From NCBI GenBank assembly GCA_002269645.1, contig NIVC01001638.1, positions 186,001 through 250,000 on the forward strand: a DNA stretch of 64,000 nt, written 5' to 3'. The translations under genes were made by a program, and so were the position numbers. The DNA is from Macrostomum lignano. Lineage: Eukaryota. Of the stretch, positions 9,664-34,765 are shown piece by piece; positions within the stretch are counted from its first letter, which is position 1; each line of letters begins with the position of its first letter. The notes under the pieces are model-generated. The model was not told the DNA's origin. It ran no database searches and worked only from the letters and a program-made list of their open reading frames with translations.

Positions 9664-9667
9664 AAGT

Positions 9668-13430: not shown

Positions 13431-14642
13431 TTATTTTATGTTAAACCGTGAAAGCAAAAGTTCTCTTGCTCTTTTATCGATATATTTTCTCTCAAGCATT
13501 TTGTCCAGGATGTTGACAAATTCTTTTCTATTCTCGTCTTTCATTCCGGTCTTTGCCGCTCCTAGAAGAACAGCTAACCGCTTGTAGAATTCAGGCATGC
13601 CTTTTCCGGAAGAGCTTGGAGGTGATTCGAATGATTGGTCAGAAGAGGAACTGTCATGTGGCGCTTGTCTTTGTTGAGGTGTGAATACTCTGTCATTGAT
13701 TCGCTTCATTCGTTCTGGGGAGAACTGTTCTAATTGTCGCCATTCATCTGGGCGCTGGTTTCTGTACTGGGAAATCTCATTTGGCCCTGCTTTTTCAAGC
13801 GCTTCTAGTACTTGTTCGGGTGTGATTTGTTGCTGTGGCGGTGGAGGTTGTTGTGGTTGTGGTTGTGTTTGTGGTTGCTGCTGTTGTGGTTGTTGTAGTT
13901 GTTGTTGTAGTTGTTGTTTTGGTTGCTGCTGTTGTGGCTGTGGTTGTTGTGGTTGTTGTCTTATGACCTCTTCTTGATCCGGCAAACCAAACCATTGTTT
14001 AAAGTATTTGTATTTTCTAAACCTGTTCAAGTCAATCCTGTTTTCATGTAAAACTTTCAAAACACCGTTGTTCTTGAGAATGTCTATGTCCCTCTCTAAA
14101 GCGAAGGTAACCAGATCTCTATAATTCTTTAATTGCTTCTCGGATATTTTTTCCTGATTTTTAGTCATGTAGTCGAGTAAACTTTGAGTGAAGGGGATTC
14201 GTTTAGTTTCTGCGCCTTTATTGATTGAAATAGTTTCCTTCGTCACTTCAATGTTGTAATCCGCCGGTTCCCCGGTAATATTTTTTCGCCAGGCGCTAAT
14301 TCCAAATATATATTTTCCATCATCCGTTACGGGGCCAAAAAAGTTATCCGTCACTTTCATCTGCACTGGTTGTCCTGGTTGCTGAGCCTGTGGTTGTCCC
14401 GGTAAAGATGGGATTTTACCCAATGTGTTTTGCAACTGGCTCTCTTGAATATCATCAATTGTTTCCTTCACAGTGTCGATGTTTTTCTTCGCTTCTGTGT
14501 ATCCAGGTTTGTGAAACTCTGTGGCTGCTTGGACAAACTCATTGTAGGATTGCTGCTCCTTATTTATTAGCCCGGTAACTCGTTTCTCTGCTTGTGCTAG
14601 CTTCTCCAATTCAGATATCTGTTGTGTACTTTTTCGCTTCAT
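13431..14642 (-). CDS. Conserved Polinton protein with polyQ/P tract
   Basis: 403-aa ORF; C-terminal GKG....KRLAVLLGAAKTG....EF..ILDK.L motif typical of Polinton structural genes. Confidence 0.7.
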   Translation of the reverse strand: MKRKSTQQISELEKLAQAEKRVTGLINKEQQSYNEFVQAATEFHKPGYTEAKKNIDTVKETIDDIQESQLQNTLGKIPSLPGQPQAQQPGQPVQMKVTDNFFGPVTDDGKYIFGISAWRKNITGEPADYNIEVTKETISINKGAETKRIPFTQSLLDYMTKNQEKISEKQLKNYRDLVTFALERDIDILKNNGVLKVLHENRIDLNRFRKYKYFKQWFGLPDQEEVIRQQPQQPQPQQQQPKQQLQQQLQQPQQQQPQTQPQPQQPPPPQQQITPEQVLEALEKAGPNEISQYRNQRPDEWRQLEQFSPERMKRINDRVFTPQQRQAPHDSSSSDQSFESPPSSSGKGMPEFYKRLAVLLGAAKTGMKDENRKEFVNILDKMLERKYIDKRARELLLSRFNIK

Positions 14643-14672
14643 TTCTTATTTTATTTTATTTTTAGTTAAAAA

Positions 14673-15959
14673 ATGAACGACCCACTGACACCAGTTTTCT
14701 ACAAAATTAACAAGCCTATTTTGAGTGATGATAGCACAATCAAAGCGACTCAGGTAAGAGTTCCCAGTCAGGAAAATCAGAATGAAACTAATCTTGGTCC
14801 TGGCCAAACACTGACATTTACATACAATGGATGTTCGTCTTTGGTTAGTGTGCACAGTCTTAAGAGCGGCTTCCATATGACATTTCAATTCAAGACAAAG
14901 GGTGGTGCGGATGCGGCTCGTGCTAACGTTGACAAGCATGATGCGGATGTGGCTCTGATCAGTAACTTTTGGGCGTACATGTTCAAGGAGTTTAGTGTAT
15001 CGAATGGGAGCACTGAGTTGGAGCGAATCGCTAACTTTGGAATTGTCTATGACGCTCATTGTTTGATCGAGAATCCTGATTTTATTCAGTTGGGAAGTGG
15101 TGCGGGTTTTATTGCAGATGAAAAAGAAGGAGACATCAATGACAGTGGCTATAAAAAGAGGAAGAAGAGATACAACTATGCATTGCAAGGTGCTGATGAT
15201 GCTGCTAAGAACCCGCTGTATCGGTCTGTTGATGTATTTGTACCATTAAGATTCATGAGTGGATTCTGTAATACATTTAATCGACTGACTAGTAACTTTA
15301 GCTACACTTTTAAGATGACTAGAGATGATCGCAGTAGAGTGTTGTGGACTGGGGCGGACCACACAAGGATGGAGGTGAAGCTAACCGGAATCGAGCTGTA
15401 TTTGGAAGTCATTGAGCCAAAGACTGCACTAAAAGCGGATTATCTCAAGGCAATAGAGAAGGACATTGATGTTGCATACACGGCCTACATGTGTCGAGAT
15501 GAGCGAAACGAAACTAGAACAAACATCTGCATTAAAGAGGGATCATGCAGCAATCCAAGGTATATTATTATTAACATGAGAAACCCAAATAGCATTATAC
15601 GCTACATGCATGGAGACGTGCGGTCCATTCAGCATGAAATCAGTGATAATCTTTACCCTGCACTGCCACAAAATGGAGATTTCAGTCAGAACAAGATTAG
15701 CAAATTTTACAGCGAGTTGGTCGACTTGGCTGTGAAAGAGAACAATGGAATTGCTATCACTGCTCTTCAATATGGAACTCTATATCCAATGTTTGGCGCT
15801 GATGTGTCTGCCAGACAAATGCCTACTGATAACAGCCCTGTGAATATCGTGACTAACATTGAAAGGACTGCCGCAACACCCGTGGACCTGTACATTGTCT
15901 ATGCATTTGAGAGGAAGGTGAAGCTTAACATGATCAACAATTCATCCAGTAAAGTTTAA
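14673..15959 (+). CDS. Double jelly-roll major capsid protein (hexon-like)
   Basis: 428 aa, beta-rich; SDDST, ALISNFWAYMFKEF, PRYIII, YPALP motifs; head-to-tail with the penton gene. Confidence 0.85.
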   Translation: MNDPLTPVFYKINKPILSDDSTIKATQVRVPSQENQNETNLGPGQTLTFTYNGCSSLVSVHSLKSGFHMTFQFKTKGGADAARANVDKHDADVALISNFWAYMFKEFSVSNGSTELERIANFGIVYDAHCLIENPDFIQLGSGAGFIADEKEGDINDSGYKKRKKRYNYALQGADDAAKNPLYRSVDVFVPLRFMSGFCNTFNRLTSNFSYTFKMTRDDRSRVLWTGADHTRMEVKLTGIELYLEVIEPKTALKADYLKAIEKDIDVAYTAYMCRDERNETRTNICIKEGSCSNPRYIIINMRNPNSIIRYMHGDVRSIQHEISDNLYPALPQNGDFSQNKISKFYSELVDLAVKENNGIAITALQYGTLYPMFGADVSARQMPTDNSPVNIVTNIERTAATPVDLYIVYAFERKVKLNMINNSSSKV

Positions 15960-15978
15960 ATATTTTTTAGGACAAAAA

Positions 15979-16842
15979 ATGGAAGCTATAGCCGAAAGAC
16001 TAAATAACATTGTTTCACACTCTAAGGAGAGCATTCCTATTACAATAACTGGGCGAATTAATGACTCAAACGGGATGTTTGTTGAAAAATTAGAGCAGGC
16101 GATTCGCCTGGATCCAGGTGCTAATTACCATGTCTATCTTAACGACTTCACTGGTTGGTCAAACGTTCCCAATGTGATGGCAGCAAATAATAAGTTTTAT
16201 TACAAATGGAAAGATGCAGCAGCAGACCCTGTGGTATTCCATGTGAGCACGCAAAGTGTGGATACCTACAATAACTTTCTAGAAAATGTCTTTACTAAGA
16301 GAGGCCATTTTGAGACACCTGATGCGAGTAAGCCAGAGAAGAAACTTTTCCCTGTCAAACTAACCTATGATCTCACTGTAATGAGAGTGGTCATGCAAGT
16401 CCACAAAGATGCGGAGGTTGAGTTTAAAGATGACACTTGGTATAGGGAACTGGGATTCGAGAAGAAAGTTTATAAGGCAGAATCCGCGGCGCGGACCGCC
16501 ACTCAAGCATCGGGGACTGTTAAAATGGTCCGGGAAAGTGCAAGCGGTTTGTTCTTAGCACCCAATATTGCAGACATTGTAAAGGGTTTGAATATTCTAA
16601 TCAGAAGCAATCTCAGTCTTGATTGGGTATTTAAGGGAAAGCGAACGAATATTTTGTACAACATCTCCAACTCTGTTGCTGGAGGACAGATGGTGGTAGA
16701 GAAACCAAATCCAGTGAAAAGAGTTGTATTGAGTAATAAGGAGATTCACGAGATTGTGCTACAGTTTGAGACTGAAGATGGGGTGGGTGTTGATTTCAAC
16801 GGTGAAGAGTTTGTATTGACGTTGATCATTGAGAGAATGTAA
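15979..16842 (+). CDS. Single jelly-roll minor capsid protein (penton)
   Basis: VPNV...NNKFYY, ELGF, I.I.SNL, NILY, VDFNGE..VLTL.I motifs. Confidence 0.88.
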   Translation: MEAIAERLNNIVSHSKESIPITITGRINDSNGMFVEKLEQAIRLDPGANYHVYLNDFTGWSNVPNVMAANNKFYYKWKDAAADPVVFHVSTQSVDTYNNFLENVFTKRGHFETPDASKPEKKLFPVKLTYDLTVMRVVMQVHKDAEVEFKDDTWYRELGFEKKVYKAESAARTATQASGTVKMVRESASGLFLAPNIADIVKGLNILIRSNLSLDWVFKGKRTNILYNISNSVAGGQMVVEKPNPVKRVVLSNKEIHEIVLQFETEDGVGVDFNGEEFVLTLIIERM

Positions 16843-16846
16843 GAAA

Positions 16847-17086
16847 TCACAATTGCTTAATGATTTCTGCAAAGTTATAGTAGCTGTCGTAATCTTTTAC
16901 GTAGGTTACTCCGTACTTATGAAACCAGTGTCTTTGAAGAGCTAGATTAATATTAGGGACATTGATATCAACGCAGGGCCAATATTTTCTCATGTACTCG
17001 CTGTATTCCTTCTTGCATTGGTACTTACTCTTGTAATTAGGCTCGTGCGCTTTGTAATAAGAACCTGGAGAGACAACTGGAAACAT
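16847..17086 (-). CDS. Small Tyr-rich ORF of unknown function next to the right TIR
   Basis: 79-aa ATG ORF preceded by AAAAA like other genes of the element. Confidence 0.45.
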   Translation of the reverse strand: MFPVVSPGSYYKAHEPNYKSKYQCKKEYSEYMRKYWPCVDINVPNINLALQRHWFHKYGVTYVKDYDSYYNFAEIIKQL

Positions 17087-17098
17087 TTTTAGATAAAA

Positions 17099-17543
17099 AT
17101 TAGATTTTTTTTCAAAGGGTAAGGACCCTGCGCTGATGATTTAAAGTTTTAGGGATCTGGTTTCGCGTTGCAAATTGAATGTGGGGAGAAGAATGCAGAT
17201 TGTTTTCTGATTGTTTCTGGGTGGATGTCAGTGGATTATGTCAGTGTCAGTGAACATAACAGGTGTTAGTGGACATCTGTTATGCACTGATTCTGTCAGG
17301 GATAATATGGATGGATTTAATAAGATTATGTTCGAAGTTTTCGGAGCAAGTGCGACCCCTCCACTTTTTCATGATTCTGTCGGGGATAATATGGATGGAT
17401 TTAATGGGATTATGGAGGACGTTTTGTGAGCGAGTGCGACCCCCCTTTTTTTCTGATTCTGTCAGGGATAATATGAATGGATTTAGGTGGATTATGGAGG
17501 AAGTGAAAAATTTTGTCCCAGAAGCCCCCTCATGCCTTCTACT
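17099..17543 (-). repeat. Right TIR of Polinton-1
   Basis: Ends ...GCCCCCTCATGCCTTCTACT; mirror of 3291-3735. Confidence 0.95.
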
Positions 17544-18603
17544 GGTGACTGATCACCTCCCGAATCAACTCTTCAATCAGACTGCCGCGAGAAACTTTCT
17601 TGGATCCGACCTACGACACTCAGCGAAGCCTTGCGAGCACTGAAGAGGATGGACTAGCCAAAGACCTGGCTCATCCTTCGAACGAGCCCCCGGTCAGAAT
17701 GTTGGACGGGGAGGGACAAGCCTCAAAGGAGCCCAACAACAGCGCCCTTTCGAAGTTGGAAAAAGTCGTTGAGCAACAATCTGTAATGATGCAGCAGCAG
17801 CAGCATCTACTCAACACGTTGGCACAGCAGGCCACAGCCGAACACTACCCGAACACTACCCGGAAGAGTATGGCCCCGGAGCCGCGGTAGCTGACTCGTC
17901 CGAGTCGTCAGTAATCGAAGAAACGGTCGATGGAGGTTTCGTGAACGCCTCCTTTGTAAATACAGTCCATGCGCGTGACGCCGATCCATTTATTACAGGA
18001 CGAGTGGCTCGACGAGAGGTCGCTTTTCTGCTAGACAGCGGAAGCAGAAGAAACTTCCTCGGAGCGTCCACTTGGGCCGCCATTAGGCGTCGTCCACCAC
18101 GTTGTATAGTTGCACCTGCTTACCCTAACCGAGTCGCTATGTACGACGGGACCGAGTTAAGTCTCGCCGCCAAGGTTATCCTATTAGTTGAATTCTGGGA
18201 CTATGTCGCATAAACCGAATTCTTCGTCGCCAAAGGAGACTGTGAAAATCTTTTAGGAATTGATTTCATGCGGAGTCATTGCCAAGGACTAGACTTCCAG
18301 CAAGGAATGCTCACATTCCGACAAGGCACCCGACTTCCCGTACGCTATTCAAGGAGAGAACTGAAGGCCTGCCGAGTGTACGTCGCTGAAAAATGCACTC
18401 TGCCGCCTCAATGTTCCTGCCTCGTCGCCATTAAACTAGCCGAAGGTCATCAGCAGAACTACGGTTCACCGATGATTATCGAACCACTCAAATCAGGACT
18501 GCGAGCGAAGCATCACCAGTTAGACGCAGCCCCGGTCCTGCATACGATGACAGAAGGTCGAGGAGTGATGGAAGTACTTAACCCATCAGATACAGAGGTC
18601 CAT
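17544..18603 (+). pseudogene. Ty3/Gypsy gag C-terminus and aspartic protease remnant (5' half of the split element)
   Basis: PTTLSEALRA gag-like motif; FLLDSGSRRNFL protease motif; LGIDFM; post-protease ...IEP...MEVLNPSDTEVH; stops and frameshifts. Confidence 0.75.
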
Positions 18604-18970
18604 CCAATGTGAGAATCGATTGGTCTTTTAAAACTTTGCTTGTCCTTTATAGTCTATGGCTCATAGACTAGGCTGAACGCAGCTAGGCCCTTCGTATTCA
18701 GCGTAGGCAGGATTCTCACTTTGGATGGCTTTATTCTCAGTTAGGCTGACAAAACCAATATTAGTGTAGTAGGCCCTAATAAAACACAGGTAGATACAAG
18801 TATAATGCAGACTTACTTTCAATACATGTGTGTATAAAGCGTAAAGAACATATCAGATTAATGTATAAAGCAGGTTTAAAAAGTCTACTTTCGATACATA
18901 GCAGTTTAATGTATAAAGCAGGTTTACAAAGTCTACTTTCTATACATATCAGATTAATGTATAAAGCAGG
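18600..18970 (+). repeat. ~370-bp repeat, inverted copy of 33237-33596
   Basis: ~98% identical in reverse complement; internal ~45-bp TATAAAGCAGG repeats; GTCTATGGCTCATAGAC hairpin. Confidence 0.93.
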
Positions 18971-20232
18971 CAAACACACAGGTGCAATTTCAACAGACGC
19001 ATAATTAATGTCTCACCAACTAAAGAGTAAATATTGGTGCGATTGTGTAACCAGCAGGCGCACAGCGGTTTAGGGAAACCCCAAAAGGGAGGTTCACGGC
19101 CTAATGACCCGATATACTTTCAACACGATTAAATTGAATGGCGACGCGGGGGCCGGAAAAGTCTATAGCCCGCAGGAATCGATCCTGGGTCACCCTGTTT
19201 TAAACCACCAGGGTTACCCCCTAGGCCATTAACCTCCCGGGGACTATAGTCTCATTATTGTCAAAAATAGATGGGCAAAAGGGAGGTTTTTACCGCCCGA
19301 GCCCTCTCACATGTTCAATCGGGTTGAAAGTATTTCAAGTCATTAGGTTGTAAGGTCCATTTGTTTAGGACCGGCCCACCTATATTTCGGGTGGGCAGAC
19401 TCGAGCCCGGGGCCAGCCCATTACAGTTTTCGGACCGGCCCCCTCTGGCAATTTCCTCCCTAGGGGCGAGCTATCAGAATTGGTGTTTTAACCCTGTGCA
19501 TGCGCACATGAGAACCCAGTTAGCGCCCATTCTAACCTACCCAGTGTACAGTGTCAGGTTCCCCAAACCGCGTACAAAGAGAAATAGCTTATCAGTCAAT
19601 CTCCATACGCTCCCTCAGGGCTGTCTCGTACGCGGCCTCTTCCTCCACGCTCTCGAAGCAGTAGTCGGATGACTGCCAATGTGAAAATTATAACATTCTA
19701 TATAGACAAAATATATGAAGTACAGATTATACGAAATGTATATATACTGTAATATCTTACCAAATCTAAATCGTCCTCCAGCCGCCACAGACGTAGAGAC
19801 GCTGTATAGCGCACCAGCGAAAGGTGCTCCTCCCAGTTGGAGGGCCAGATAGCTGCAGCAGGCTCATCCCAAGCAGTCGGGCGCGCTCCCGGGCCAGCCA
19901 GGTACGCCTCCGAGTCGGGGGCATGCGAATTGCGCCCCATTAGCCAATCCTGGTGTAACGTCTCCGCCTCCAACACCTCCCGTAGGCAGGCCCCCCTCGA
20001 AACCAAAGTATCGAGAACCTGATTAAATGCTCTGACAAAGGTGTCTTGGGAGGGCAGGCCGCCAGGGTGGCGAGACCTCAGCCAGTCGATATCCCCGCGG
20101 AAAAACGAGGCAACGATGCGTGGAAAGTGTGGTGGGCGTGTCCTCGCGGCTAAGCTACTGGTTTTCTATTTGCTACTAAGGATTTTACTAGTGGATTATT
20201 ATCTGCTGTACTGATTTGAGATTTGGTAGAAT

Positions 20233-20243
20233 CGCTGCCACCA
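20233..20243 (-). promoter_or_regulatory. Primer-binding-site-like TGGTGGCAGCG (complementary to a tRNA-Leu 3' end)
   Basis: 11-nt match on the minus strand, 26 nt downstream of the LTR end. Confidence 0.55.
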
Positions 20244-20269
20244 GGCTTCCTGTTCCCTAGTCCTATTAT

Positions 20270-20685
20270 TGTAGAGACAAAGGATTGACTCAGGAAAACC
20301 GAATTGTTTAACAAAAGTTTTATACTTCAAAAGAAAACAAAATGAAAAATAGCATGCAATGGTTGGTGCAAAATGTCAGGCATCGACTACCTGTAGGTGT
20401 ACTGCTTCGGCATCAACTACCTCGACAGTTTTACTTAAATTTTTCCCAATATTCCCTGTCTCTTACCTTCCTAATTTCTGAGATCTGCCGCCAGCCAGCG
20501 AAAATAAAACTAACTAACAAGTCTGCTTTCCCAAGCCCCAAACTGTTCTATACTTCTAGAGAATCCCGAAAACTAGCGATTTTCCCCCACTCTAATTACT
20601 TTCCCAAACCTAAACTACTGACAGTAGGCAAAAAGCATATCTGCTTCGCTACTAACTCCCGTTCCTAAAATAATGCCCTACTACA
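20270..20685 (-). repeat. LTR of the Gypsy element (416 bp)
   Basis: TGTAG...CTACA termini; immediately preceded by polypurine tract AAAAGTAGGGGGGAGG (20701-20686). Confidence 0.85.
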
Positions 20686-21256
20686 CCTCCCCCCTACTTT
20701 TAAAAGTTTGCAATCCCCATTGCATACTTTCCTTCTTATTAGTTCGTGTATATTTGATAAATGTTATTATAATGGCGCGTGCAAGATGGCGTATTGAGCT
20801 GGATATAATTGATAAAATTGTACTAATAATAGGTACCATTACAGTTGTGAACAAAAGAAAATATGTATGGCTATATAAGGAATAATGTCACGTTAGCGCT
20901 GGAGAGATTTAGGCACAGATCATAGCTAATAACAGAATTGATAAAAAAATTGGTGATGACACACAGGTAATGCACGTATGAATTGGCAACAGTATAGAAA
21001 ATAATTTTTATCAGGCACAATTAATAGGCATAATTGCACTTTCTAAACGATAAGTGTAGCTAGTTAACATCATAAATGTAAAATGTAGATATTTATTAAC
21101 GCAGAATAATAATAGGCCTAATTGGACTGTCCTGTAGAATAACTAGATAAACTATTAATGTATGCGTATTTATTTGTTAAGCATGCATAAAGAAAAGCAT
21201 ACCGGCTCAAATCCAAAATGTAATTGTTTATGCTAATCTCAGCGTAACTACTTGGT

Positions 21257-22114
21257 TCAGTCATTACGTTCATCCTCTAGCCTCCTGCTTCTGGGGGGTA
21301 CCAATAGGTACATCAGCCCATTAATGGGGATATTCGTGGCCTTGAACTGGTACCGGATGTCATCTAACATCTCAAACATGGCCCGCTCTCGCCAGGGCCC
21401 TCCGGCGCGCCGCTCGGCCTCTTGCAGTACGTAGGTAGTGGCCACCTCGTAACTAGCCGTTGCTTCTTCTTCGGATGCCATCCCTAAGAACTCCTGGCAG
21501 GCCGTCGGTAGTTGATGGTTCCACTGCCCAGTCCTGCCGCTGGATAGAATGGCCTTCTTTAAGGCTTTCGTGCTGGCCTTGAAAAGCTGCTTAAAGGCCT
21601 CCTCGTTCCGCTTCGGGGGCTCGGATTCTCGTGGCGCCGCAATCGGCCATTTTACTTGACCAAAGGGGTTCGGCAGCAGCTGGAATTTTGGCATCGGCGG
21701 TTCTGTTGCAGCTGCCACTGGCGCGCCTGAGCCAGCCGACCCTTCTTCGTGTTCTTCCTCCTGCGGCTTCGTCTCCTTTTCTTCATTAGACTGCTGTTCC
21801 GTCTCATCTTCTTCATCTTCTACCTTTCGTTCTACATGTTGGACCAAGTCCTCCATAAACTGCTCTATCTCCCTTCTCAGCTCCTCTTCTCGCGTCGCCG
21901 TTCCTAATGCCTCGAAATCGATGTCGATTTGTAACTCTCTGTGGACTTCTCCCTCCTCCTCCTGCTGCCGGTCCAATTTCTGCCTTTTATACGTTTCTCC
22001 ACATTCTGCCAACTGCACTGCCCTAATTCGCGGGGGCTCGTTCTCTTCTCGACTAGTTCTGCGCTGGCCGTAGATTCTCTTCCTAGGGTACACGCGCAAT
22101 GGTGCGTCGGCCAT
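21257..22114 (-). CDS. Extra 3' ORF of the Gypsy element (285 aa, acidic/basic, non-env)
   Basis: Intact ATG ORF between pol and PPT; no signal peptide or TM segment visible; NLS-like PRKRIY. Confidence 0.7.
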   Translation of the reverse strand: MADAPLRVYPRKRIYGQRRTSREENEPPRIRAVQLAECGETYKRQKLDRQQEEEGEVHRELQIDIDFEALGTATREEELRREIEQFMEDLVQHVERKVEDEEDETEQQSNEEKETKPQEEEHEEGSAGSGAPVAAATEPPMPKFQLLPNPFGQVKWPIAAPRESEPPKRNEEAFKQLFKASTKALKKAILSSGRTGQWNHQLPTACQEFLGMASEEEATASYEVATTYVLQEAERRAGGPWRERAMFEMLDDIRYQFKATNIPINGLMYLLVPPRSRRLEDERND

Positions 22115-22116
22115 AG

Positions 22117-25100
22117 TTATTCAGATTTGAGCTGCAAGAGGTTGAATGGATTAAACAACGCCGCTATCCTCTGTACATAACTCTTCTGGTTCGGCCTGAC
22201 AGTTAATCTATCCGGAGCATGACGCTTTCTGGCTGGCCTAGCTTCTAAATTAATCCCTAGATTATTGTTATTATTTAATTGTACTGGCATAACTCCTTGT
22301 ACACCTACTAAATTATTTAGATTATTATTTTGATGCTGCACTTGTTGATTTGGCACTGACTGCACATTATTTGATGTTGCACTGGCATTAACTGCTCATT
22401 ATTTTGATGTTGCACTGGCATAAATTGCACTGCGTCCTCGTACTCGTCGTCGCTTTCTGAGTCACTGTACACATTCGGCTGAATATTGGCTAGCTGTTCC
22501 CTATTGCACTGCTTCTTTTGTTCCTTTGGCTTAGTACGAGCTTCTTCCTCCTGATAATCTGCTTGCGGTACTTTCATTAAATTGTCTCTATGCATGATAA
22601 GTTCTTCCTTCCTAGCCTTCTTGTTTTTGGTGACTGGTCTAATCTTAAAGACTACTTCTGATAATTGTTCTACAATTTCGTAAACTGCCCTTTGCTTTCT
22701 GTGAAATTTGTTAGCCTCTGTGTTAGCAATTACTGGATTATTGATAAATACTAAGCTTCCTACAGGCAATGTTTCCGGCTTAGGCTTGTTAGAGTACTCC
22801 TGCTCACGGTTTTGCTGCACTAATTTTAATCTCTTTCTTGCTAGTTCTTGGCCTTCCTGCAGATTCTGCTGATGTTCCTGGACATAAGATGGCAGGTCCT
22901 GAAACTGCTTTGGCTCGTTCAGCTCATTGTCACAGGGCATTCTGGCCTCTCGTCCAAAGATTAAATAGTGCGGACTAAATCCTGTGGCAGTGTGCGTGCT
23001 GGTTCTCAGAGCTGTTATGCAACCTGGCAACAGAACGTCCCAGTTGGAATGCTCCTTCTCCAGTAAACAGGTGAGAATTGATTTAATCTGCTTATTAAGG
23101 TTTTCTACTAAGCCATTGCTCTGCGGATGATAACTAGTTGTTCGAGTGTGTCTAATGCCATAGAGGTCTAAAAATTTCTTAAAGGCCCTACCAGTGAACT
23201 GTGTTCCCTGGTCTGTGTGAATCCACTGTGGAATCCCAAAATCAGCGAAAACTCGTTCTTGTAGAATTTTGATAACTGTTTTAGCCTTCTGATTCCTAAT
23301 TGCGAATGCGAATGGAAATTTGCTAGTGCTGTCTATGACTGAAAGTACATATTTGTTGCCTGATTTGCTGGTTTGGCCAATAGGTCCTATTAGATCTATG
23401 TGCAATCTACCGAACGGTTCGACTACAGGATAGTTCTGAATTGGTGCCTTAATTCTTCGTCTAGTTTTGCTTTCTAGGCATGATTTACATTTGGCTACGT
23501 AGCGCTCAACTGCTGTTGCTAATCCTGGCCTCCAAAATCGAATTTTAATCCTCTGATAAGTTTTATCTCGACCTAGGTGTCCCGCTAACGGTGAATCATG
23601 GAATTGGTGAAAGATTTCACTATCCAGAGACTTGGGCAACACTACCTTTGGATCAGTCTGCCCCATAGATAAGTCTACTTTGAGTACACCGTCCTCAATT
23701 CTGAGCAACTCATAGTAACCTAAGAGGTTCCTACAGTCGTGGGTTAACTCTAGTCGTTCTTGAAATGTCGGTTTAGGCGAGTCATTCTCAATTAAATTTC
23801 TAACAAAGCCTACCGCCGGATCGGCTAGCTGTGCTGCGATCAATTGGTCACGGCGAACTGGGCTACGGAGATAGTCACTGAGCAGGGCATTGCATGCAGG
23901 CGGATTTCCGGTTTTAGGCTCCTGTCCCTGTCTATTGTCTAGCCTACTGCTACTAAAGATCGGAGTATTGTGTCGGTTCGTGACAGTGTCTTGTGACGAA
24001 CAGCATGACGGAACTCCACTGCTCGAGCTACAGGTTTCAGCGAACGCGGAATTGCCTGAGCTGACAGTAAAAGCTGATGCTGGGTCTGTATTCACTGTTG
24101 CCCTACAGCTTAGCGACCTGGCATGTGGGGACATCTCTTCCGGTTGAGGATCAGGGATCCTGGATAGGGCGTCAGCATTCACATGTTTAGGGCCACTTCT
24201 ATGTTCTATCTCAAAATCAAATTCGGAAAGTCTTTCGATCCAACGACCTAAAATGCCTGTCTGTTCGGTTTGGCGAAGCAACCAGGTTAGGGCATTGTGA
24301 TCAGTGCGCACCTTAAAATGTTTTCCTACGAGGTAAAATCTAAAATACTTCAGCGAGTCAACAATCGCTAGAAGCTCCTTCCTCGTAATCGGATATCTAG
24401 TTTCTGACTGCCTCATCTTCCGACTATAATAAGCGATCGGCCTTTCAATGCCGTCGTTCTGTACTTGATTCAAGACCGCCCCAATTCTGACATCTGATGC
24501 ATCAGTGTCTAACACAAAATAAACTTGGGGGTCTGTATTGAACTCTGGGTAAGCAAGCACTTCTTCGGAACACATCCGTTCCTTCAACAATTCGAAGCAT
24601 TCATCATGAATCCTGGTCCATTTGTCCTGGATACATTTGATGTTCTTCTTGGTTAACTCACAGAGTGGTACTGCTACCTCGGCAAAATCTCTAACGAATT
24701 TTCTATAGTAATTACAGAGTCCGAGAAAACTTCGAAGCTCTGTTACAGATTTAGGTTTCGGCCAGTTCCTAATTGCTTCTAATTTTGACGCATCTCTCTT
24801 AATTCCTGCTTTGCCTATGACGTGTCCTAAATATTGTAGCTCTGATTTGAAAAGGTGACATTTCTTAGCCTTTAGTTTCATGTTAGCTTGTATTAGTCTC
24901 TTGAGCACTTCTTTCAGGTGTTCTAAATGCGATTCAAAGTCTGCACTATAAACTATTACATCGTCTAAGTAAGCTATAGCGAACTTCTGTGCAATGTCCT
25001 TAAGAACTAAGTTCATGCACCTTTGAAAAGTTCCTGGAGCTCCTTGCAATCCCATTGGCAATACTTCGTACTCAAACGAGCCTCGATGTAAAGTTGGAAA

Positions 25101-25710
25101 GCTAGTCTTGCACTTATCTTCTTCCCTAAGAGCTATCTGATAATATCCCGAAAATAGATCTAACGTAGAAAATTGACTGGCTCCATGGAGACATGAAAAT
25201 TTTTCATTGATATTAGTTATTGGATACGGAAAGTACTCCGCTTTATTGTTTAGTGCTCGATAGTCGTTGACTAATCTCAGCGAACCATCTTTCTTAGGTA
25301 CTATGACTAATGGAGTCGAGTACTGCGAGTAACTAGGCCTAATGATGCCTCTAGCCAACATGAGATCTAACTGCTCATCTACCTCCTTGATCCAATGAGG
25401 TGGAATTTTCCTAGCTGGTATCTGAACTGGGTTGTTGTCCTTCAAGATAATCTCATGAGTGACTAAATGCGTTCTGCCTAAGTCTAACTCGTGCTGCGAG
25501 AAAGCTGCTGAATGTTCCTTGACGACCTCGATCACCTTCTGTCTCTGTTCCTGAGTCAGTTCAGTTCCTATGTTAATCTCACTAATCCACTTAGCAACGG
25601 CAAGCAAGAGGATTTGTCCTGAACAAGGTCACAGCCTCAACTCTAGCACAGTCATAACTCATAAGCCTTGAGCTAGTTGGTTGGTAGGCACACCAACCCC
25701 TTTTTTATGG
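22117..25710 (-). CDS. pol: Ty3/Gypsy pol (RT-RNaseH-integrase), 3' half of the split element
   Basis: VPKKDGSLRLVNDYRALN, YLDD, TDASD, TDH, ADALSR, H..GH.G..C..C, DLIGP, DQGTQF, NGLVE; frameshift near 22370 before the RPARKRHAPDRL tail. Confidence 0.95.
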
Positions 25711-26084
25711 TAGCGGGGGGCAGCCCTGAAGCGCATTAGCTAAGTTAGGAAGTGTTCCCGCTTCTACCGAGACCTCTTTCCTACTGTTCGTTATCCCTTT
25801 CCCCTTCATCGATCCAGTCTTCTTGTGCGGTCCCGGCCTTCTCCGGCTTTCGTCTCCAGGCGGGGTCCAGGTCAACTCCTCATCAGTCTCCCCCGCGGGC
25901 CGGTTCCAACCAGTTCCAGTTTTGCTGTCGGTCCGGGCCGCGTTCGCACTGTAATGAAAGGGTGAGCTCCGGGCGTGTCCTCATCTAACCTCTCTGCTTT
26001 CAGTTGCTTGCCCTCTCTACTGTTGCTATTTTCTGCCTGATTTTATCCTAGAGCTCTCTTGAATTCGTTTCAGATTTCTAAGTC

Positions 26085-26618
26085 TTATAGAAAGCGCTCG
26101 CGAGCCATGGCAATCTCCCCAGGCACGTCCTCGTCCTCATCGTCGAAGAGAAGGAGCGTAGCGGCTGATGATATTGAGGCCCGGCGGGAGGCAGTCGAAG
26201 CAGAGGCGGCAGCAGCGGAAACGGGCGCTGCAGAGACGGGCGCAGCAGAGACAGAGGCGGCAGCAGCGGAGCCAGAGACAGGCGCGGCAGAGGCAGAGAC
26301 AGGACCGGCTGTGGTCAGCTCCTCAACAGAGACCTCAAAGAGGGTGGCTGAGGCGGCAGTCAAATCGGAGGCAGTAGCAGCAGGGGCGCCGTTCACAACC
26401 CCTCCAATAGCCAGCAGCGGGAGGTCGAAAACTTCAGACTCGGTGTCACGATCATAGGCCATAGCCCAAGCTAAATATTGATCAACCTCCCAATTATCAG
26501 TTCCGTTGTTTTCAGTGCCTAGGGGGACTATGTGTTCGGGGATATCACCGTCGAGGCTAGTTAACTCTTCAGTCGGGCGATTTTTATCCCAGAGGTTGGA
26601 TAGAGCTCGGCGGGACAT
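26085..26618 (-). CDS. Unknown ORF with Ala/Ser-rich repeat, in the Polinton-2 module
   Basis: 177-aa ATG ORF downstream of the PC4-like gene, same strand. Confidence 0.45.
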   Translation of the reverse strand: MSRRALSNLWDKNRPTEELTSLDGDIPEHIVPLGTENNGTDNWEVDQYLAWAMAYDRDTESEVFDLPLLAIGGVVNGAPAATASDLTAASATLFEVSVEELTTAGPVSASAAPVSGSAAAASVSAAPVSAAPVSAAAASASTASRRASISSAATLLLFDDEDEDVPGEIAMARERFL

Positions 26619-26734
26619 GTTGGAATCAACAGAGAGTAAAGTATCAGAGCAAGGATGGGGTTTGGCTCTCTGGAGAGAGAGGAAACACTAATTATATAGT
26701 AGGTCCAAGTGAGGTGGTGTGAGCCAATAGGAAA

Positions 26735-27280
26735 CTACCAGTGCCGACCCTCGTCATACAGATTTTCCCAGGGCGGGGATTGGTAGGGTTTGAGACCCAC
26801 AACCTGAAGAACGTCCTGCAGATTTTCCTCCTCAGTCCTGGCTACCGGAGGGGTCTCTGTCTTGGCTCGCTTGGCAGGCGGTGGGGCCTCAGGTGCCGGC
26901 TTAAAGAGCTTGTCCAAACGGGAGGCAAACATCCGGCGCCACAGTTCAGGCGTGAATTCGATCGTGTAGCGCCAATTAAACTTTGGGTCCACGTTGAGCC
27001 AATCGCGCAGCAAACGAATCCTTCCTTGCGAAGCCTCGACAGCCTTGAAATTGCCCAACACGACCCGCTTGTACACGTGAAGGCGGGCAGCAGCCTCCAG
27101 GTCAGGGCGTGCAGACTCGAGCTTCTTCCACTCTGGTTCGGTCAAGTAGATTGCAGGGAAGCCGTCCTTCCACACTCCAGCCTCGTTGGTGCAGAGACGC
27201 CGAATTTCAATCAAGTTGTGCTCAGTTTCAAATGTGGGCTTCCGCGCCACAAAGTTTTCGTATAGAGAGTTAAAAGACAT
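26735..27280 (-). CDS. Tandem PC4-like ssDNA-binding protein
   Basis: IEIRR....AG.WKDG...IYLTEPEWKKL and a second RIRLLRDW...YTIEFTPELWRRM resemble the PC4 signature IR...G..GI.L..EQW..L; PPAKRAK NLS. Confidence 0.65.
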   Translation of the reverse strand: MSFNSLYENFVARKPTFETEHNLIEIRRLCTNEAGVWKDGFPAIYLTEPEWKKLESARPDLEAAARLHVYKRVVLGNFKAVEASQGRIRLLRDWLNVDPKFNWRYTIEFTPELWRRMFASRLDKLFKPAPEAPPPAKRAKTETPPVARTEEENLQDVLQVVGLKPYQSPPWENLYDEGRHW

Positions 27281-27519
27281 GATTTAGCAGCAGCAGCAGA
27301 GAGCTCTCTGGCAGCCGTGCAGCGCCTTATATACCCCCGGATGGAGGGTGGGGTGGGTGGTGATTTTGGGGGTGATTTTTGATGATTTTGGTTGGTTTTT
27401 GGCGATTTGACCAATAACCAGCAAGCTGGGCAGATTTTTTAGTATATATACAGACCCCCAGAACAGGGATAGAGAGATAATCCTTCTCTCTCCGCTCTCT
27501 AACACTCTCTGTTTGCAAA
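27281..27519. promoter_or_regulatory. Putative bidirectional promoter between the PC4-like gene and pPolB
   Basis: 239 bp between divergent ATGs; TATA-like CTTATATAC (~27327) and AGTATATATAC (~27441). Confidence 0.45.
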
Positions 27520-30500
27520 ATGTCAAAGCGCAGCGCAGCACCAACTGCTTTCCTGGCTGATAAGAGGCAGCGTCTTTATGGTAAGTTTTTAATTAATTTC
27601 TGGCCAGTTGTTTATCAGTCTAGACTAGAGTTACTAGGGTGGGGTGCTGCGGCAGGAGGTGAGCTGCTGCGACAGCTGCAGGGGTTTAGCGCTGTCTAGA
27701 CAAGTTTCAGCACGGTGAGCTGCGCGTGTAAACAAAGACTGGGGCTGCAGATAGGGTGCGTGTACGTAGCTGCCCAGACAAGCTGCAGCTGAGGTGCTGA
27801 TAAGAAATTGCTGCAAAAACAGATAATCGTTGGGTGCGGTGACAGAGAGTTGCTGGGGAGGACTAGACATCATTTAGCAGCAACAGCTGCAGGATCCGTG
27901 GGAATTGGAGGGGTGCAGCAGAGTAAACAACAAAGACTGGCGCTGCTGCGCTGGCTACACGGGTCTAGACTAGAGTCACTAGGCAGGGGGGGGGGTACGT
28001 TGCTGATAAGAAATTGGCAGAGGCTGTAACAGATAATCGTTGGGGTAAAATTGCAGACAAGTTTCAGCAGGGCGGTGGCAGAGAGTTGCTGGGTCTGATA
28101 ATCGGTGTGCGGGGACAGCGTGAACTCTGATAAGAAATTGGTGCAGATTTCTGGCGCTGCCCAGACAGGCTGCAGCTGGGGTACAGATAAGAAATTGGCA
28201 GGGGCTGTAACAGAGAGTTGCTGGGGCGGGCTAGACACGTTTCAGCAGCAACAGCTGCAGGGTCTGTGGGCAGCAGAGTAAACAAAGACTCTTGCAGAAT
28301 AGAGTTGGTGAATTGCTGCTTGCTGCGACATAGGGCTGATAGGAACTTGCTAGGGCGGGGGAATGACAGATTCTTCTGGTTTGTTATCTCCTTGTGTTTT
28401 TTTCAGACGCGTTTGTCCCGCCTGTACAGCCAGAATCTGTTACCGGACCGGGTGAGTTATCTAGCCCCCATTCCCCAGACAGACCCGGGCTGACTCACAC
28501 TCCCCTTCATTCCCTGCAGGTTTTACGGCCCGGCTAGATAATCAGCGCAAGCTGCCCAAGTTTAGGGCAAAGGGTGTTGAGTATGTGGTGCGTATTAGTA
28601 ACACCGAAGATTTACGCTAGACATTCGCTAGTATGCTCGAAGTTTTCAAGCAGGATTTGGCGGGGGAAGACTTTATGGCCGCGAAATTCGAGAGCGACAA
28701 CATGCTCAAAGCCGCCCATACTCCCCCCAGTGCGTGCAGCCCGCATGACAGCCGAATTATTATTCAAGCACATTGACAAGATTGTGCAGTCGGAGGCAAC
28801 TGTCTTGACGGGCAACTTTTCTATCCGACTGCTAAAGGCCTGGGTGCCTCGAGGTGGCTGCTCCCTCGAGAACAAGCATCTGGAGGACCGCCATGTCTTC
28901 TCCAAGCACTATGTCTGCATCAACAACACTGACAAGAGGTGCCTGCTGCGAGCGCTTGTTGTCGCCTGCGCCTACCTGCAATTTGTGGCCAAGACAATCA
29001 CCGAGCAACTGTGGCGCACGATCAAGGCCAATTCACTCAAGCAGACTAAGCTGGTGGCTCAGCTGCAAATCAAAGCCGGTCTCTACACGGTAAGTTGGGC
29101 ACTGATTTTCCTGATAAGAATTACTAAAAGAACCATTTTTCTGCTATTTTCATGGATTACTAAAAGAATTTTTACATAGTATCATGGAATACTAAAAGAA
29201 CCATACTCTGATAAGAATTTTTACGATAAGAATTACTAAAAGAACCATTTTCTGGTAGGAATTTTTACATAGTATCAGGGAATACTAAAATAAATATTTT
29301 ACCCCCACACAGACTCTTCAAACCGTCTCGCAGGCCGGTCCTTTCGGGGTGGATGTACTACCCGAGGCGATCCGTGCCCTGAACCGGCTGCATCCTGGCC
29401 ACAACTTTGGTGTACGAGTGTACCGGGCAGAGGAGGCCAACAGGTGCATCTTCAACCTGCCTGGCATCGAGATTCTGCACCTCCACCTGATTGAGCAGCA
29501 CTTCAATGTGGTTACCAAGCTGCCAGCGTTTTTCGGCAGCCACCACTACTGCTCCAAGTGCGAGATGGCCTATGACTGCACCAACGCTGAGCACAAGTGT
29601 GCTGACGCCTGGAGTACATGCAAGACGCCGGGCTCCAACTGCAAGGTCAACCGCGCATATGTGAGATGCCATGATTGCGGGCTAAATTGTTATAATGCTC
29701 AGTGTCTAGAGAATCACAAGCGCAAGAATAAGGCGGGTAGATCTCGCTGTGATTCAGTCCACGTTTGCGGCACGTGTGGCTATCTAGAAGAACTGAAAGT
29801 AGGCCAGGCCCCCGAGCATCAGTGCGGTCACTCCAAGTATCCAGTCTGCAAGCAGTACGATGAAACAGCCACCTACGAGTGCTTTGTCACCCCGCCCAAA
29901 GCCAAAGAGTCTAGCGCCCCGTACGTTTACTACGATTTCGAGACGTACGTTGACTCTGGCAAGCAGCACCGGGTACACTTGGTTACGGCAGCTACCTCCT
30001 GCGAGGCGTGTCCCAAACTCTTCCCCAGGCCCCGCTGCAGCGCGTGCGGGGGTTGCACCGCTCAGCCAATTGCATTGCGGGACGCGATTTGGCGCGCGAT
30101 TTTACGAGCTGTGTCTCCCACAATGACTGTGCTTGCGGGATGCGAGAGTTTTTATCAGTCGGGCCTCACTCTATCGATGCATTTTACTGCTGGCTGACTA
30201 GCGTGTTCAAGCAGGGGGCAATTGCTATTGCGCACAATGGCTCTGCGTATGACGCATTCCTCCTGCTCGGAGCCCTACTCAATGGACTGGCCAAGAAAAA
30301 GCCCCAGGTAATCTTCCAGAACAGCCGCCTGATGTACATGAAGAGTGACAAGATCACGTTCAAGGACAGCCTCAACTTTATCCCTATTGGTCTGGCGCAA
30401 TTCCCAAAGGCACTTGGTTTGAGCACCCAACTGACCAAAGGAGATTTCCCGCACGTGTTGAATCAGCCGCAAAACTGGGGCTACGTAGGACCCTACTGCT

Positions 30501-32694
30501 CGATTGATATGTACGGAGGGAAAAAGAATAAGCAACACGACTCCATCGCTGACTGGCTGGCCCAGCAGGAGGGCCGAGTGTTTAATTTCAACAAGGAGTA
30601 CCTGGACTATTGCCTGCAGGACACGCTAATATTGCGGGAAGGCTGTCTAAAGTACGGCCGCCTAATTAAGGACATTTGCGGACTGGACGCATTTGTCCAA
30701 TCCAACACCATTGCGGGCTTGGCCATGGCAGTATTCACCACCAAGTTTATGGTGCCCAACACTCTTGGGGTGATTTCTCGCCGGTCAGATGTGCAGTCGC
30801 ACAAGGCGCGGTGCTGGCTTGCACATTTGAATGCAACCGAGTTTGGCGGCCGGTTGCGGACAGCCGACTTTGGCGGCGAGGCTTTCGCCATAGGCCGAAA
30901 GGTGTATGGCTTCGACCCAGAGACTAGGACGGTGCTCCAGTTTCATGGCTGCTTCCACCATGGCTGTCCCAAGTGCTTTTTCAACGGCGACGTGCTGCAC
31001 CCGCTCAAGAACCAGCCAATGCGGGCAATTTATGAGGAGACTGAGCGCTTCACCCGGCTGCTCTCTACAGCCTACAATGTACGTGTTCTGTGGGAGCACG
31101 ACTATCAGGGCGGGGGAGCGCCAGTCCAGCAGCCTATTCGTCTGGAGGAAGCCCTGTTTGGCGGCCGCACCGAGGCCTTTGTTCCGCACGCCGAGGCCAC
31201 TGAGACTGTGGAGCTGCGCTATAGGGATGTGGTAAGTTTTTTCAAAATTTCTCACACACACGCACACACACACAGTTGACTTGCGTTTGAGTTTAGCCTA
31301 CTTATCCTCTAGGTGTCGCTCTACCCGACTGTCAACAAGTTTGACAAGTACCCTGTCGGGCACCCGGTTCACCACCCCGAGCCTCATCTACTAGATGAGC
31401 AGCAGCTGGCTCGGTATTTTGGCATCGCCGAGGTCTCAATTCTGCCGCCAACCAATCTTCACATCCCGCTACTGCCCGCCAAGATTAGCAAGAAGCTGGT
31501 TTTTGGCCTCTGCCGCGTCTGCATGGAGACACAGTGCAGCAGCGAGTGTACACACACTGACGCTGAGAGAATGCTCCGCGGCACGTGGTCGACCCCAGAG
31601 CTCCACAAAGCCCTGCAGTTGGGTTACAAGCTGCAGTCAGTTCATGCCCTGGCGTATTGGACCGAGACTCGGTCCGGGCTGTTTGCAGATTATGTAAACA
31701 CCTTTTTGAAGCTCAAAGCCGAGTCTAGCGGTTCGCCGGGGATGACTGAGGGCGCCAAGGCTGCCTACATGGCCAGCTTTTTCGAGCGCGAAGGTGTCCG
31801 GCTTGACAAGGTGGAAGAGAACCCTGGTCTGCGCTTTGTGGCCAAGATTTTTCTAAACTCGTAAGTTGGGGAGACCGTGTTTTTCTACTTACAGTAGCCA
31901 GATATACTAACTGCTAAAATTTATTTTTCCCTGCAGGCTCTGGGGAAAATTCTGCCAGCGCGACGACTTGACCTCCACAGAGATTGTGGACAGCTACGAG
32001 GCGTGGCTCCAGCGTCTGACAGACCCCTCCATCAAGGTCAAGTCGTGCGAGCCTGTTGGGGAGAGCTTCATGATGCTCGAGTATAAGCCCCGATTTGGCG
32101 GTGCCAGCGAGCGAGCATTTAAGTACGCCAATGTACCAATTGGCGTTTTCACCACCTCCCATGCCCCGCTGCGACTCTACGAGGCTCTGGAGGGGCTAGG
32201 ACCAGAGTCATTTACGCCGATACCGATTCGTAAGTAATTTTTTCACTGTCTCTGTGTCTCTTTCTCCCCCAACACTTTTTTATCCTCCTCCTCCTCCCAG
32301 GGTCGTATACCGGTGCTCTCCGGGCGAGTACGAGCCTCCGGGCGGTTCGAGTTTGGGGCAGTGGACTGACGAGGTACCTGCCGGCTGCCGTATGGTACAG
32401 TTCACCACTGGGGGCCCCAAGCTCTACCGCTATGTGGTGGAGAAGCCCGACGGGTCGGTGTACTCGGTACTCAAGTGCAAGGGCATCCGAGTCACACCCG
32501 AGATTTCCGAGCGCGAGGACGAGCTGCAGGAAATTCTGCGCCACGGCTGCTCTGTAAGCCTGCCCCAGGTCCAGTTCAGGCGCGATATGGCTAGCTGTAC
32601 AATCAGGACCCTGGAGATGGACAAGACTTTCCAGCGAGTAATGACTAAGAGAGTGTATGGGGCCGCCAGCCGTCCGTATGGCTTTCGGGAGTGA
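27520..32694 (+). pseudogene. Protein-primed DNA PolB (Polinton-like), 7 exons, ~1276 aa, with 1 stop and 3 one-base frameshifts
   Basis: Exons 27520-27580, 28407-28451, 28520-29089, 29313(or 29334)-31231, 31313-31860, 31937-32229, 32301-32694; all GT..AG with compatible phases; ExoI YYDFET, ExoII HNGSAYD, ExoIII YCLQDT, inserted FHGCFHHGC nuclease-like domain, YRDV|VSLYP, LNS|LWGKF, YADTDS|. Confidence 0.9.
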
Positions 32695-33236
32695 GTGATA
32701 ACGATCTGTCTTAGGGGAGCGGTTTTCGTGAGTGATAAGGATCGGTCTTTGTACGTCTCCCAGCCTGGGATTCCCCTATGTGCACACTTGGGATCCCTTC
32801 AAGTGTTAAAACTCCCATTTGACACCTATTCCCCCGGGGCGGTTTGTAGCCCGTTGGTCCACCTCTTGGAGTAGAACTCCTGCAAAACGGACATAAACTG
32901 CTGCGCCGATTAGCGTCCCGATAGCGCAATCGAAATACGTTTCCGCTCCCGAGCCCTCTCACGGGTTCAATCGGGCTGAAAGATGTTGACGCGTTCAAAA
33001 GCGTCGTGATAATAATATATTGTGGGTTAGGGCGGCTAAAAACTCCCTTTTGTTTTTTGTTTAATGCACCTGTGGGCTAGACAATTGCAGCAATATTTAC
33101 ACCTGCAGCACCTACGTTTGTATAGCTTTATTAATCTGATATGTTTCAAAAGTGAATATGCTTTATACATATGAGTCTGTATTTTACAACTATATATTTA
33201 CGCCTGCTGATATTTGCACTCGCGCATGCATACCAT

Positions 33237-33596
33237 TATTAATCCGATATGTATCGAAAGTACACTTTGTAAACCTGCTTTATACATTAAACTGCTATGT
33301 ATCGAAAGTAGACTTTGTAAACCTGCTTTATACATTAATCTGATATGTTCTTTACGCTTTATACACACATGTATTGAAAGTAAGTCTGCATTATACTTGT
33401 ATCTACCTGTGTTTTATTAGCGCCTACTACACTAATATTGGTTTTGTCAGCCTAACTGAGAATAAAGCCATCCAAAGTGAGAATCCTGCCTACGCTGAAT
33501 ACGAAGGGCCTAGCTGCGTTCAGCCTAGTCTATGAGCCATAGACTATAAAGGACAAGCAAAGTTTTAAAAGACCAATCGATTCTCACATTGGATGG
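33237..33596 (-). repeat. Inverted partner of the 18600-18970 repeat
   Basis: Direct sequence comparison; ends ACATTGGATGG. Confidence 0.93.
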
Positions 33597-33734
33597 CTTT
33601 TTATCACTTTGCTTGTCCTTTATTGTCTTTGGCCCATAGACTAAGGCTGCACGCAGCCAGGCCCTTCGCAGTCAGCGTAGACAGGATTCTCACTTTGGAT
33701 GGCTTTATTCTCAGTTAGGCTGACAAAACCAATA
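33436..33734. repeat. Long imperfect palindrome (arms ~128 bp, 42-bp spacer)
   Basis: 33436-33563 versus 33606-33734 in reverse complement, ~93% identical. Confidence 0.88.
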
Positions 33735-33929
33735 CGTACCCGCTTTGTATTTTGTCTGCTTTACCGTCTGTCAATATATCGATAATATGCACCTACATTG
33801 TGTGTTTTTTTGCTGCTCATATACCTATTATGCACCATTATTCACACCTACCAATATGTTTTATCTACTTTTTTATGTAAATATACTCAATTTCGCCTAC
33901 TATAAGTAGTTTTCACTAGCCTAATATCA

Positions 33930-34240
33930 TTGACTACATATCGGTGTACACATACATATCGGGAGAGTGTACTGGGGAGAGTGTACTGGGAAGAGTGTAC
34001 TGGGTAGAGTGTACTGGGGAGAGTGTACTGGGAAGAGTGTACTGGGTAGAGTGTACTGGGGAGAGTGTTCACTCGGGGTGCCTGCGGCATACATATCGGG
34101 GTACATATCGGGAGAGTGTGCATACATATCAGGAGGGTCGCCTGCGGCATGGGCGCCTGCGGCATACATATCGGGGTACATATCGGGAGAGTGCGCATAC
34201 ATGTCGGGAGGGTCGCCTGCGGCTGGACGGCGCTTGGCGA
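33930..34240. repeat. Minisatellites (GAGTGTACTGGG(G/T)A 14-mers; CATACATATCGGG/GCCTGCGGCAT blocks)
   Basis: Visible tandem repeats. Confidence 0.85.
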
Positions 34241-34765
34241 TACGATACGATACGCGTATCGATCACCTAGTGATCGGGGCGCCAGCCAATGAGAGGCGAG
34301 GAGGGTTGACACCCACCTCACCTCCAAAATCAACGGAAACGGGGTTGTATAGTAGTGAGGTAGACCCAAAGTAGTGAGAGACCATATTTAAAATATTTCA
34401 CTATGTACCCAAGGCCGGGCAATTTGAGGCCGCGGAGGCAATAGAGCTTGTGCATGTGGGAGAAATAATTTCTCTACACGGAGCCAGCGTGCCTATGAGG
34501 CCGCCTGCTGGGGGAGAGATTTTCTCTCCCGAAGTCAGCGTGCTCGGGGGTCGCGTGCATGGGAGAGAGAAGTAGCTATTATTATTACTCCATAATTATG
34601 AAATCAGTGAGGTTTGAATACTAGATTTCATGTTTTCTAGTAGAAGTTAATCTCAGTTTTTCAGGGCATTTTTTTCTCGAATACTGTGTTGGGATAGCTA
34701 TTTCAGCCATAAGAGCTTTGTACGTCAATCGATTTTAGTATATGTTGATCTAAGGGGGATTTGGT

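Follow-up and report, generated by a model that had tools for sequence, protein, structure and literature searches.

The window analysed here, a 64,000-nt stretch of a Macrostomum lignano contig (NIVC01001638.1, positions 186,001–250,000, forward strand), carries a gene for a family B DNA polymerase, protein-primed and of the pPolB2 type, divided by six introns and belonging to an integrated element that we call segment P. Genes for integrase and capsid are missing from segment P and are found instead on a second element, segment M, a feature of the system that goes beyond the first-pass annotation of the locus. We read the window copy as the decayed polymerase segment of a group-2 Polinton that is bipartite, with two segments that likely act in trans for one another, a reading to which we assign a probability of about 80%. 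It builds on what was observed of the two segments: their gene contents, the ends they share, 6-bp target duplications, insertion at separate places, four introns seen spliced, purifying selection, and recurrence of the same split in a sister lineage. The two lineages are referred to as A, to which the window copy belongs, and B.

The polymerase gene runs on the plus strand from 27520 to 32694. Exon 1 (27520–27580) encodes an ATG and a short basic peptide and occupies the corresponding position in 9 of the 10 other A copies; its lineage B equivalent, MASKRSAA..KRRQL, also ends at a phase-1 GT. Intron 1 (27581–28406, 826 nt, phase 1) has GT..AG ends in all 10 mapped A copies, where it measures 657–980 nt, and is followed by a 45-nt exon 2 (28407–28451), recognised from the window sequence and from other copies, by intron 2 (28452–28519, 68 nt, phase 1) and by exon 3 (28520–29089), labelled terminal-protein/OTU-like from its position, after PMC11161782. 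Intron 3 (29090–29333, phase 0; acceptor at 29312 or 29333) is placed by conservation. Exon 4 (29334–31231) encodes a Cys-rich region, the exonuclease, a VSR-like insert and the start of motif A, exon 5 (31313–31860) extends from motif A to motif B, exon 6 (31937–32229) from motif B to motif C, and exon 7 (32301–32694) to the stop codon. The intervening introns 4 (31232–31312, 81 nt, phase 0), 5 (31861–31936, 76 nt, phase 2) and 6 (32230–32300, 71 nt, phase 2) interrupt the catalytic motifs A, B and C at YRDV/VSLYP, in the Ser codon of LNS/LWGKF and in the Ser codon that ends YADTDS, the last residue of motif C. All donors read GTAAGT or GTGAGT (GTRAGT), all acceptors consist of a pyrimidine tract and YAG, and the phases 1, 1, 0, 0, 2 and 2 match the flanking frames. 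The sequence thus bears out the first-pass proposal of six phase-compatible GT..AG introns, the last three of them within palm motifs, and its joined polymerase of ~1276 residues corresponds, by exon arithmetic, to ~1,270 codons with acceptor 29333 or ~1,276 codons with acceptor 29312. Pfam family PF03175 matches exons 4 and 5, identifying a protein-primed PolB, and in a phylogenetic tree the window polymerase is nested among pPolB2-type proteins, in a Macrostomum clade with a support of 1.0; the nearest named proteins are 85–99% identical and come from M. lignano.

The window copy is decayed: exons 3, 4 and 6 are broken, a 5.96-kb insertion is nested in the element, and its left end is missing. 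The stop at 28618 and the three 1-bp shifts (near 28725, 30053 and 32201) had been attributed to decay or mis-assembly. Two loci near-identical to the window copy (L002, L003) show no exonic indel relative to it at 30053 or 32201, and four other copies differ from it at both positions. Since these two breaks are common to L002 and L003, they represent inherited decay and not assembly error.

Splicing was assessed by comparing window positions 26000–33150 with contigs from four sequencing runs, X1 and X2 (study P1), X5 (study P2) and X15. The run types are automatic guesses: X15 is presumed DNA-type, and X1, X2 and X5, none of which is recorded as RNA, are presumed RNA-type, in agreement with their own spliced joints. 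Contigs of X1, X2 and X5 skip introns 2, 5 and 6 exactly from GT to AG, and these introns are not skipped in X15. One X5 contig spans exons 5, 6 and 7 without introns and starts with 27 letters that match the end of exon 4, a loose end that supports the spliced form of intron 4. Introns 2, 4, 5 and 6 are therefore spliced, as expected of spliceosomal introns, with 2, 5 and 6 removed in three runs and 4 at one contig end; introns 1 and 3, absent among the splice joints listed, are predicted by conservation. The X5 contig without intron 2 extends at least 89 letters upstream, beyond the 45-nt exon 2, and hence retains the end of intron 1, a weak hint that this intron is often retained and the one observation bearing on the first-pass suggestion that splicing controls replication. 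The RNA-type contigs diverge from the window copy and accordingly derive from other copies. With four introns seen spliced and all six conserved, the introns make expression of the polymerase dependent on the host spliceosome, in line with the first-pass proposal and with the junction check it had suggested.

Genome-wide searches covered the M. lignano genome (764 Mb). Exon 5 as query retrieved lineage A, with 49 loci at 91–100% identity, and lineage B, with 29 or more loci at 68–73% identity; A and B polymerases are 71% identical. Among the A copies (10 fetched, plus the window), GT..AG ends are kept in 10/10 for introns 1 and 2 and in 11/11 for introns 3–6. Among 20 B-type copies, counting only those in which the respective intron could be mapped, introns 2–6 have GT..AG ends in 12/13, 16/16, 18/18, 16/20 and 16/16, at the same codon and in the same phase as in A, and intron 1 was found in 2 copies. 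Both acceptors of intron 3 are kept in 11/11 A and 16/16 B mapped copies. Of 30 further loci, 26 matched at intron 4, 27 at intron 5 and 29 at intron 6, and not one case of precise intron loss was found among them. Intron lengths drift regardless of frame, and intron identity is 69–90% among A copies, compared to 97% for exon 5, and about 27–53% between A and B. We considered whether 867-aa frames in lineage B represent an intronless sister and rejected this, as B intron 4 is in-frame and stop-free and introns 2–6 lie at matching places. Silent sites between A and B polymerases are saturated (proportion of silent differences, pS, 0.65–0.76), and the introns are older than the split of the two lineages.

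Among A copies, the polymerase exons show ratios of replacement to silent change (dN/dS) of 0.03–0.16 per exon, and exons 2–7 are unbroken in 4/10 A and 4/10 B copies. The conservation of all six introns, the existence of spliced transcripts and the signs of purifying selection would also be compatible with domestication of the polymerase by the host and intron gain as a host gene, a possibility raised in the first-pass annotation, but the gene is not a single fixed copy lacking terminal repeats. It occurs at about 49 loci in lineage A and 29 or more in lineage B, the whole element is repeated with terminal repeats and differing target duplications, and exons are broken in 6/10 A and 6/10 B copies. 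These are the properties of a mobile element, and we regard domestication as very improbable.

The positions of introns 4, 5 and 6 fall at the 99.5th, 97th and 91st percentile of conservation (permutation P ~0.01, with the three introns chosen post hoc), so that placement at conserved sites modestly exceeds chance. In B-family polymerases, inteins have their insertion sites at most a few codons away from these motifs A, B and C. Within three copies, the introns are mutually dissimilar (11–57% global identity), and an introner origin was rejected on the grounds that the introns of the gene are unlike each other, a comparison confined to these three copies and made without a genome-wide search with intron sequences. 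In 83 outside polymerases, some of which may be spliced gene models, no extra residues occur at the sites of introns 4, 5 and 6, with exact agreement in 80/83, 72/79 and 50/68; in 14 relatives examined at the DNA level, motif A is contiguous in 12, motif B in 13 and motif C, by a strict pattern, in 7. As an outside query we used L142, a complete group-2 Polinton found on a metagenome contig, whose polymerase has contiguous motifs A–C and one GT..AG intron (L142:6817–6935) in the VSR-like region. The first-pass statement that Polinton genes are usually intron-poor agrees with PMC8097293, which, in the text accessible to us, describes intact vertebrate Mavericks as intron-free, with two gene modules on one element, in contrast to the six polymerase introns found here; the intron of L142 shows nevertheless that introns are less unique to the present gene than assumed. 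Spliceosomal introns in viral genes are likewise described, in the sections seen, for the chlorovirus DNA polymerase, with one conserved intron in a B-family gene (PMC7019647), and for introners of dinoflagellate polinton-like viruses (PMC12166617). The present gene differs from these in having six introns instead of one, mutually unrelated, without an introner signature and common to two old lineages. The polymerase introns thus probably exemplify a more widespread trait that is under-described, and segmentation is the rarer finding.

A copies of segment P are 8.8–9.7 kb long, with terminal repeats of ~0.9 kb and the ends ACTACTA..TAGTAGT; B copies have the ends ACTACGTA. Perfect 6-bp target duplications flank all copies with both ends read (6/6 A, 8/8 B). 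In the window, the right terminal inverted repeat occupies 33238–34356 and terminates in ..TATAGTAGT at 34356 (5′-ACTACTA on the minus strand), and a remnant of the left inverted repeat lies at 18600–18958. Divergent from the polymerase, a gene on the minus strand (26735–27280) very probably encodes a PC4-like protein, a predicted single-stranded-DNA-binding protein: its product is 42% identical over 128 aa to a B-lineage protein that itself scores above the Pfam PC4 cut-off, and a profile search with it gave 7 matches, which provided no context. Open reading frame (ORF) 2, also on the minus strand, is divided into a 5′ part (26090–26618) and a 3′ part (19592–20127); the latter contains one 88-nt intron (19760–19673), to which a GT..AG intron of a B copy corresponds in position, and ORF2 had no match in Atlas. 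Its two parts are separated by the nested 5.96-kb insertion (20128–26089, minus strand), which is bounded by a 5-bp duplication and harbours a Gypsy-like frame of 1,103 codons (22317–25628) for reverse transcriptase, RNase H and integrase, identified by Pfam; no terminal repeat pair was found for it. This integrase frame was rejected as a part of segment P, as it is missing from other copies.

Neither RVE integrase nor capsid, ATPase or protease genes accompany the polymerase on segment P. In tblastn searches, 15 queries for these proteins were compared with 14 P elements, 5 further elements and 8 incomplete stretches and matched none of them, and the same queries matched a control Polinton. 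Among 142 frames searched against Pfam, only PC4 and dUTPase exceeded the cut-off, the dUTPase being additionally present in one B copy. Larger B copies, considered as possible integrase carriers, contain insertions of long interspersed nuclear elements (LINEs) instead. Two different LINEs are found in B copies (L061–L064) within the CAG run that belongs to exon 1 of the polymerase. In several B polymerase copies (L055–L056, L059–L060, L067–L068), the arm with PC4 and ORF2 is replaced by an arm related to the palindromes described below, and the polymerase 3′ end occurs again in the left repeat. Exon 4 alone as query gave no match in viral contigs.

The integrase and capsid genes reside on segment M. 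The polymerase of L142 as query retrieved only the A and B loci among the best 124 of 210 candidates, which were scored, and its capsid and ATPase matched at least 96 and at least 150 places, respectively. The M element read whole (on C807 of G000) is 10,541 bp long, with repeats of ~650 bp, a 6-bp duplication and A-type ends, and encodes integrase, minor and major capsid proteins, protease, ATPase, a Fic protein and a TBP-like protein, with each core gene in a single frame; it gave no polymerase match. The A-type end was present at 7 of 8 predicted right ends of the M capsid family. Genome-wide, the M-type end had 64 matches compared to 0 for the control, 15 pairs of such ends are spaced 10.3–10.7 kb apart, all 15 enclose an integrase match, and 4/4 further A-type M elements have 6-bp duplications. 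A second integrase family, ~80% identical, lies between B-type ends, with 10 pairs of ends spaced 8.3–11.0 kb in the first 100 rows listed and 6-bp duplications in 5/5 tested. Lineage B thus shows the same division, its polymerase gene interrupted by the same introns and its elements bounded by an end motif of their own. Comparing tables by eye, we found none of 56 integrase loci (28 A-type, 28 B-type) within 40 kb of a polymerase match; the closest spacing is 44 kb, on C1485, and involves opposite lineages. The major capsid genes of two M copies differ by 8 silent and 0 replacement changes. Other capsid and integrase families of group-2 type are also present (L144–L147, 38% integrase identity), without a group-2 polymerase within 15–16 kb; at one of these loci, a frame is similar to the beginning of a group-1 polymerase.

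P and M resemble each other only over their first 31 bases. Three terminal 31-mers are letter-identical between P and M copies; beyond base 31 the match falls to 50–53%, and the 650–900-bp repeats of P and M are unrelated. Within the terminus (in the window, 34326–34356), a hypervariable stretch with a fixed length of 20 nt between ACTACTA and TTTT is block-shuffled across segments. Variants of this stretch are common to P, M and gene-less palindromes, within each lineage only, and the two ends of a single element sometimes differ. P and M carry complementary gene sets between shared termini, and taken together their genes are those of the complete element L142.

The palindromes form families specific to each lineage (L101–L105 and L134–L141), with 4.1-kb one-arm forms (L107–L109). 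The A-ended elements are 8.5–9.3 kb long, 98.7–99.5% perfect and flanked by direct 6-bp duplications of their own in all five read, with differing flanks, an observation that makes long-read artefacts an unlikely explanation. An inner 25-mer has 93 matches, mostly as inverted pairs. Eight polymerase-free B-ended elements have one non-coding arm in common, and the fold-back centre was seen in 5 within the stretch fetched. We rejected the palindromes as coding partner segments, for which neither tblastn nor Pfam gave support. One B-type palindrome carries an inserted frame (L137:3890–4999) for what is presumably a mariner-like transposase.

DNA transposons commonly give rise to deletion derivatives, and P and M might be such derivatives of a one-piece Polinton that mobilised both and is either unassembled or recently lost; the assembly may be incomplete, and some B copies are chimeras or fold-backs. 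Against this origin, P and M are alike over 31 bp only, with unshared 650–900-bp repeats, the same split occurs in two lineages with silent-saturated polymerases, both halves are under purifying selection, and 0 full elements were found among 56 integrase and ~80 polymerase loci. We consider it improbable. About equally poor prospects attach to a second explanation, in which P is a self-replicating element resembling a linear plasmid, M a separate element devoid of polymerase, both borrow from other Polintons of the genome (a group-1 polymerase or other integrases), and the common ends are ancestral only. Potential lenders exist: a group-1 family with at least 150 integrase loci also generates 6-bp duplications, and other integrase families are present. 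The group-1 ends are AGTAGAAG..CTTCTACT, however, and not ACTACT..AGTAGT, and the same 20-nt variants on P, M and palindromes within a lineage point to continued exchange.

In the bipartite reading, P and M likely use each other's enzyme, since P has target duplications without an integrase and M has the ends without a polymerase. Host splicing would yield pPolB2, which would prime the copying of both segments at their ACTACT ends, with the PC4-like protein binding displaced strands; the M integrase would insert both P and M, producing the 6-bp duplications, the M capsid module may package either segment, and the 9-kb palindromes with the same ends would be carried along as satellites. Terminal-repeat priming and integrase action are adopted here from Polinton biology as outlined in the consulted portions of PMC11161782 and PMC8097293. 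P, M and palindromes all measure 8–11 kb, a range that would fit a packaging limit. Several points weigh against this reading: (i) cooperation between P and M is deduced from their structure; (ii) one M element, of A-type, was read whole, and absence of a polymerase elsewhere relies on size and genome searches; (iii) the integrase and capsid families at 38% identity and the large group-1 family could act as helpers; (iv) the loose B end pattern is weakly controlled (245 matches compared to 127); and (v) the capsid selection count derives from two copies only. Going further, we tentatively, and with slightly less than even confidence, picture a multipartite double-stranded DNA Polinton virus still active in the flatworm germ line, consisting of a spliced replicase segment, a capsid–integrase segment and non-coding hairpin satellites of similar size that would share a rapidly shuffling 31-bp origin, from which each is replicated, and be packaged and integrated independently, with retention of intron 1 gating the polymerase.

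The name Polinton stands for polymerase and integrase on one element. Like group-2 (Beta, pPolB2) Polintons, Mavericks and adintoviruses, P and M together comprise a pPolB2 with VSR-like insert, RVE integrase, capsids, ATPase, protease and a PC4 gene, with long terminal repeats and 6-bp duplications. They differ from these in that polymerase and integrase occupy different elements, of 9–10.5 kb compared to 12.7–24.6 kb. The ends deviate as well: PMC8097293 defines, in the passage seen, (AGT)2..(ACT)2 or (AG)3..(CT)3, whereas the present elements have the ends ACTACTA or ACTACGTA, of the pattern (ACT)2..(AGT)2. In bidnaviruses (Bombyx mori bidensovirus), the genome likewise consists of two segments whose terminal structure is conserved, one of them bearing a pPolB of Polinton origin, and the segments are packed separately according to the part of PMC4061559 at hand. 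Unlike P and M, bidnaviruses have single-stranded DNA, a parvovirus-type capsid and no integrase, and capsid and polymerase share a segment. Cytoplasmic linear plasmids and capsid-less Polintons resemble P as pPolB replicons with terminal repeats that have lost the capsid module (PMC11161782 and PMC4028283, as excerpted); P differs from these in being nuclear, spliced and integrated, in also lacking an integrase and in having a partner that keeps the capsid module. Genomes with virion genes and no recognisable PolB or integrase are reported in PMC11071296, the excerpt of which does not mention partner segments.

In the open-access literature, searched by titles and the starts of abstracts, we found neither a segmented Polinton nor these elements, which Repbase or supplements, outside this search, may describe. 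Introns in Polinton polymerases do occur elsewhere. One survey (10.1101/2023.08.22.554363) requires, in the portion available, five core genes within 20 kb; split, intron-rich Polintons may be overlooked, since they evade gene-proximity and intact-frame filters. The system would show, in nature, how a lineage of double-stranded DNA viruses comes to have a segmented genome, parallel to bidnaviruses, and with a laboratory animal and public spliced transcripts at hand, formation of Polinton particles and the choice of ends by the integrase become testable by observation and knock-down.

The window also contains, at 3300–17550, an ordinary group-1 Polinton with genes for PLA2, integrase, protease, ATPase and the capsid proteins, both major and minor, with ends of AGTAG type and with a polymerase that has an internal deletion. 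The family to which it belongs, the one with at least 150 integrase loci, has long single-frame polymerase pieces. A GC-rich inverted-repeat insert lies within this neighbouring element at 11094–11750.

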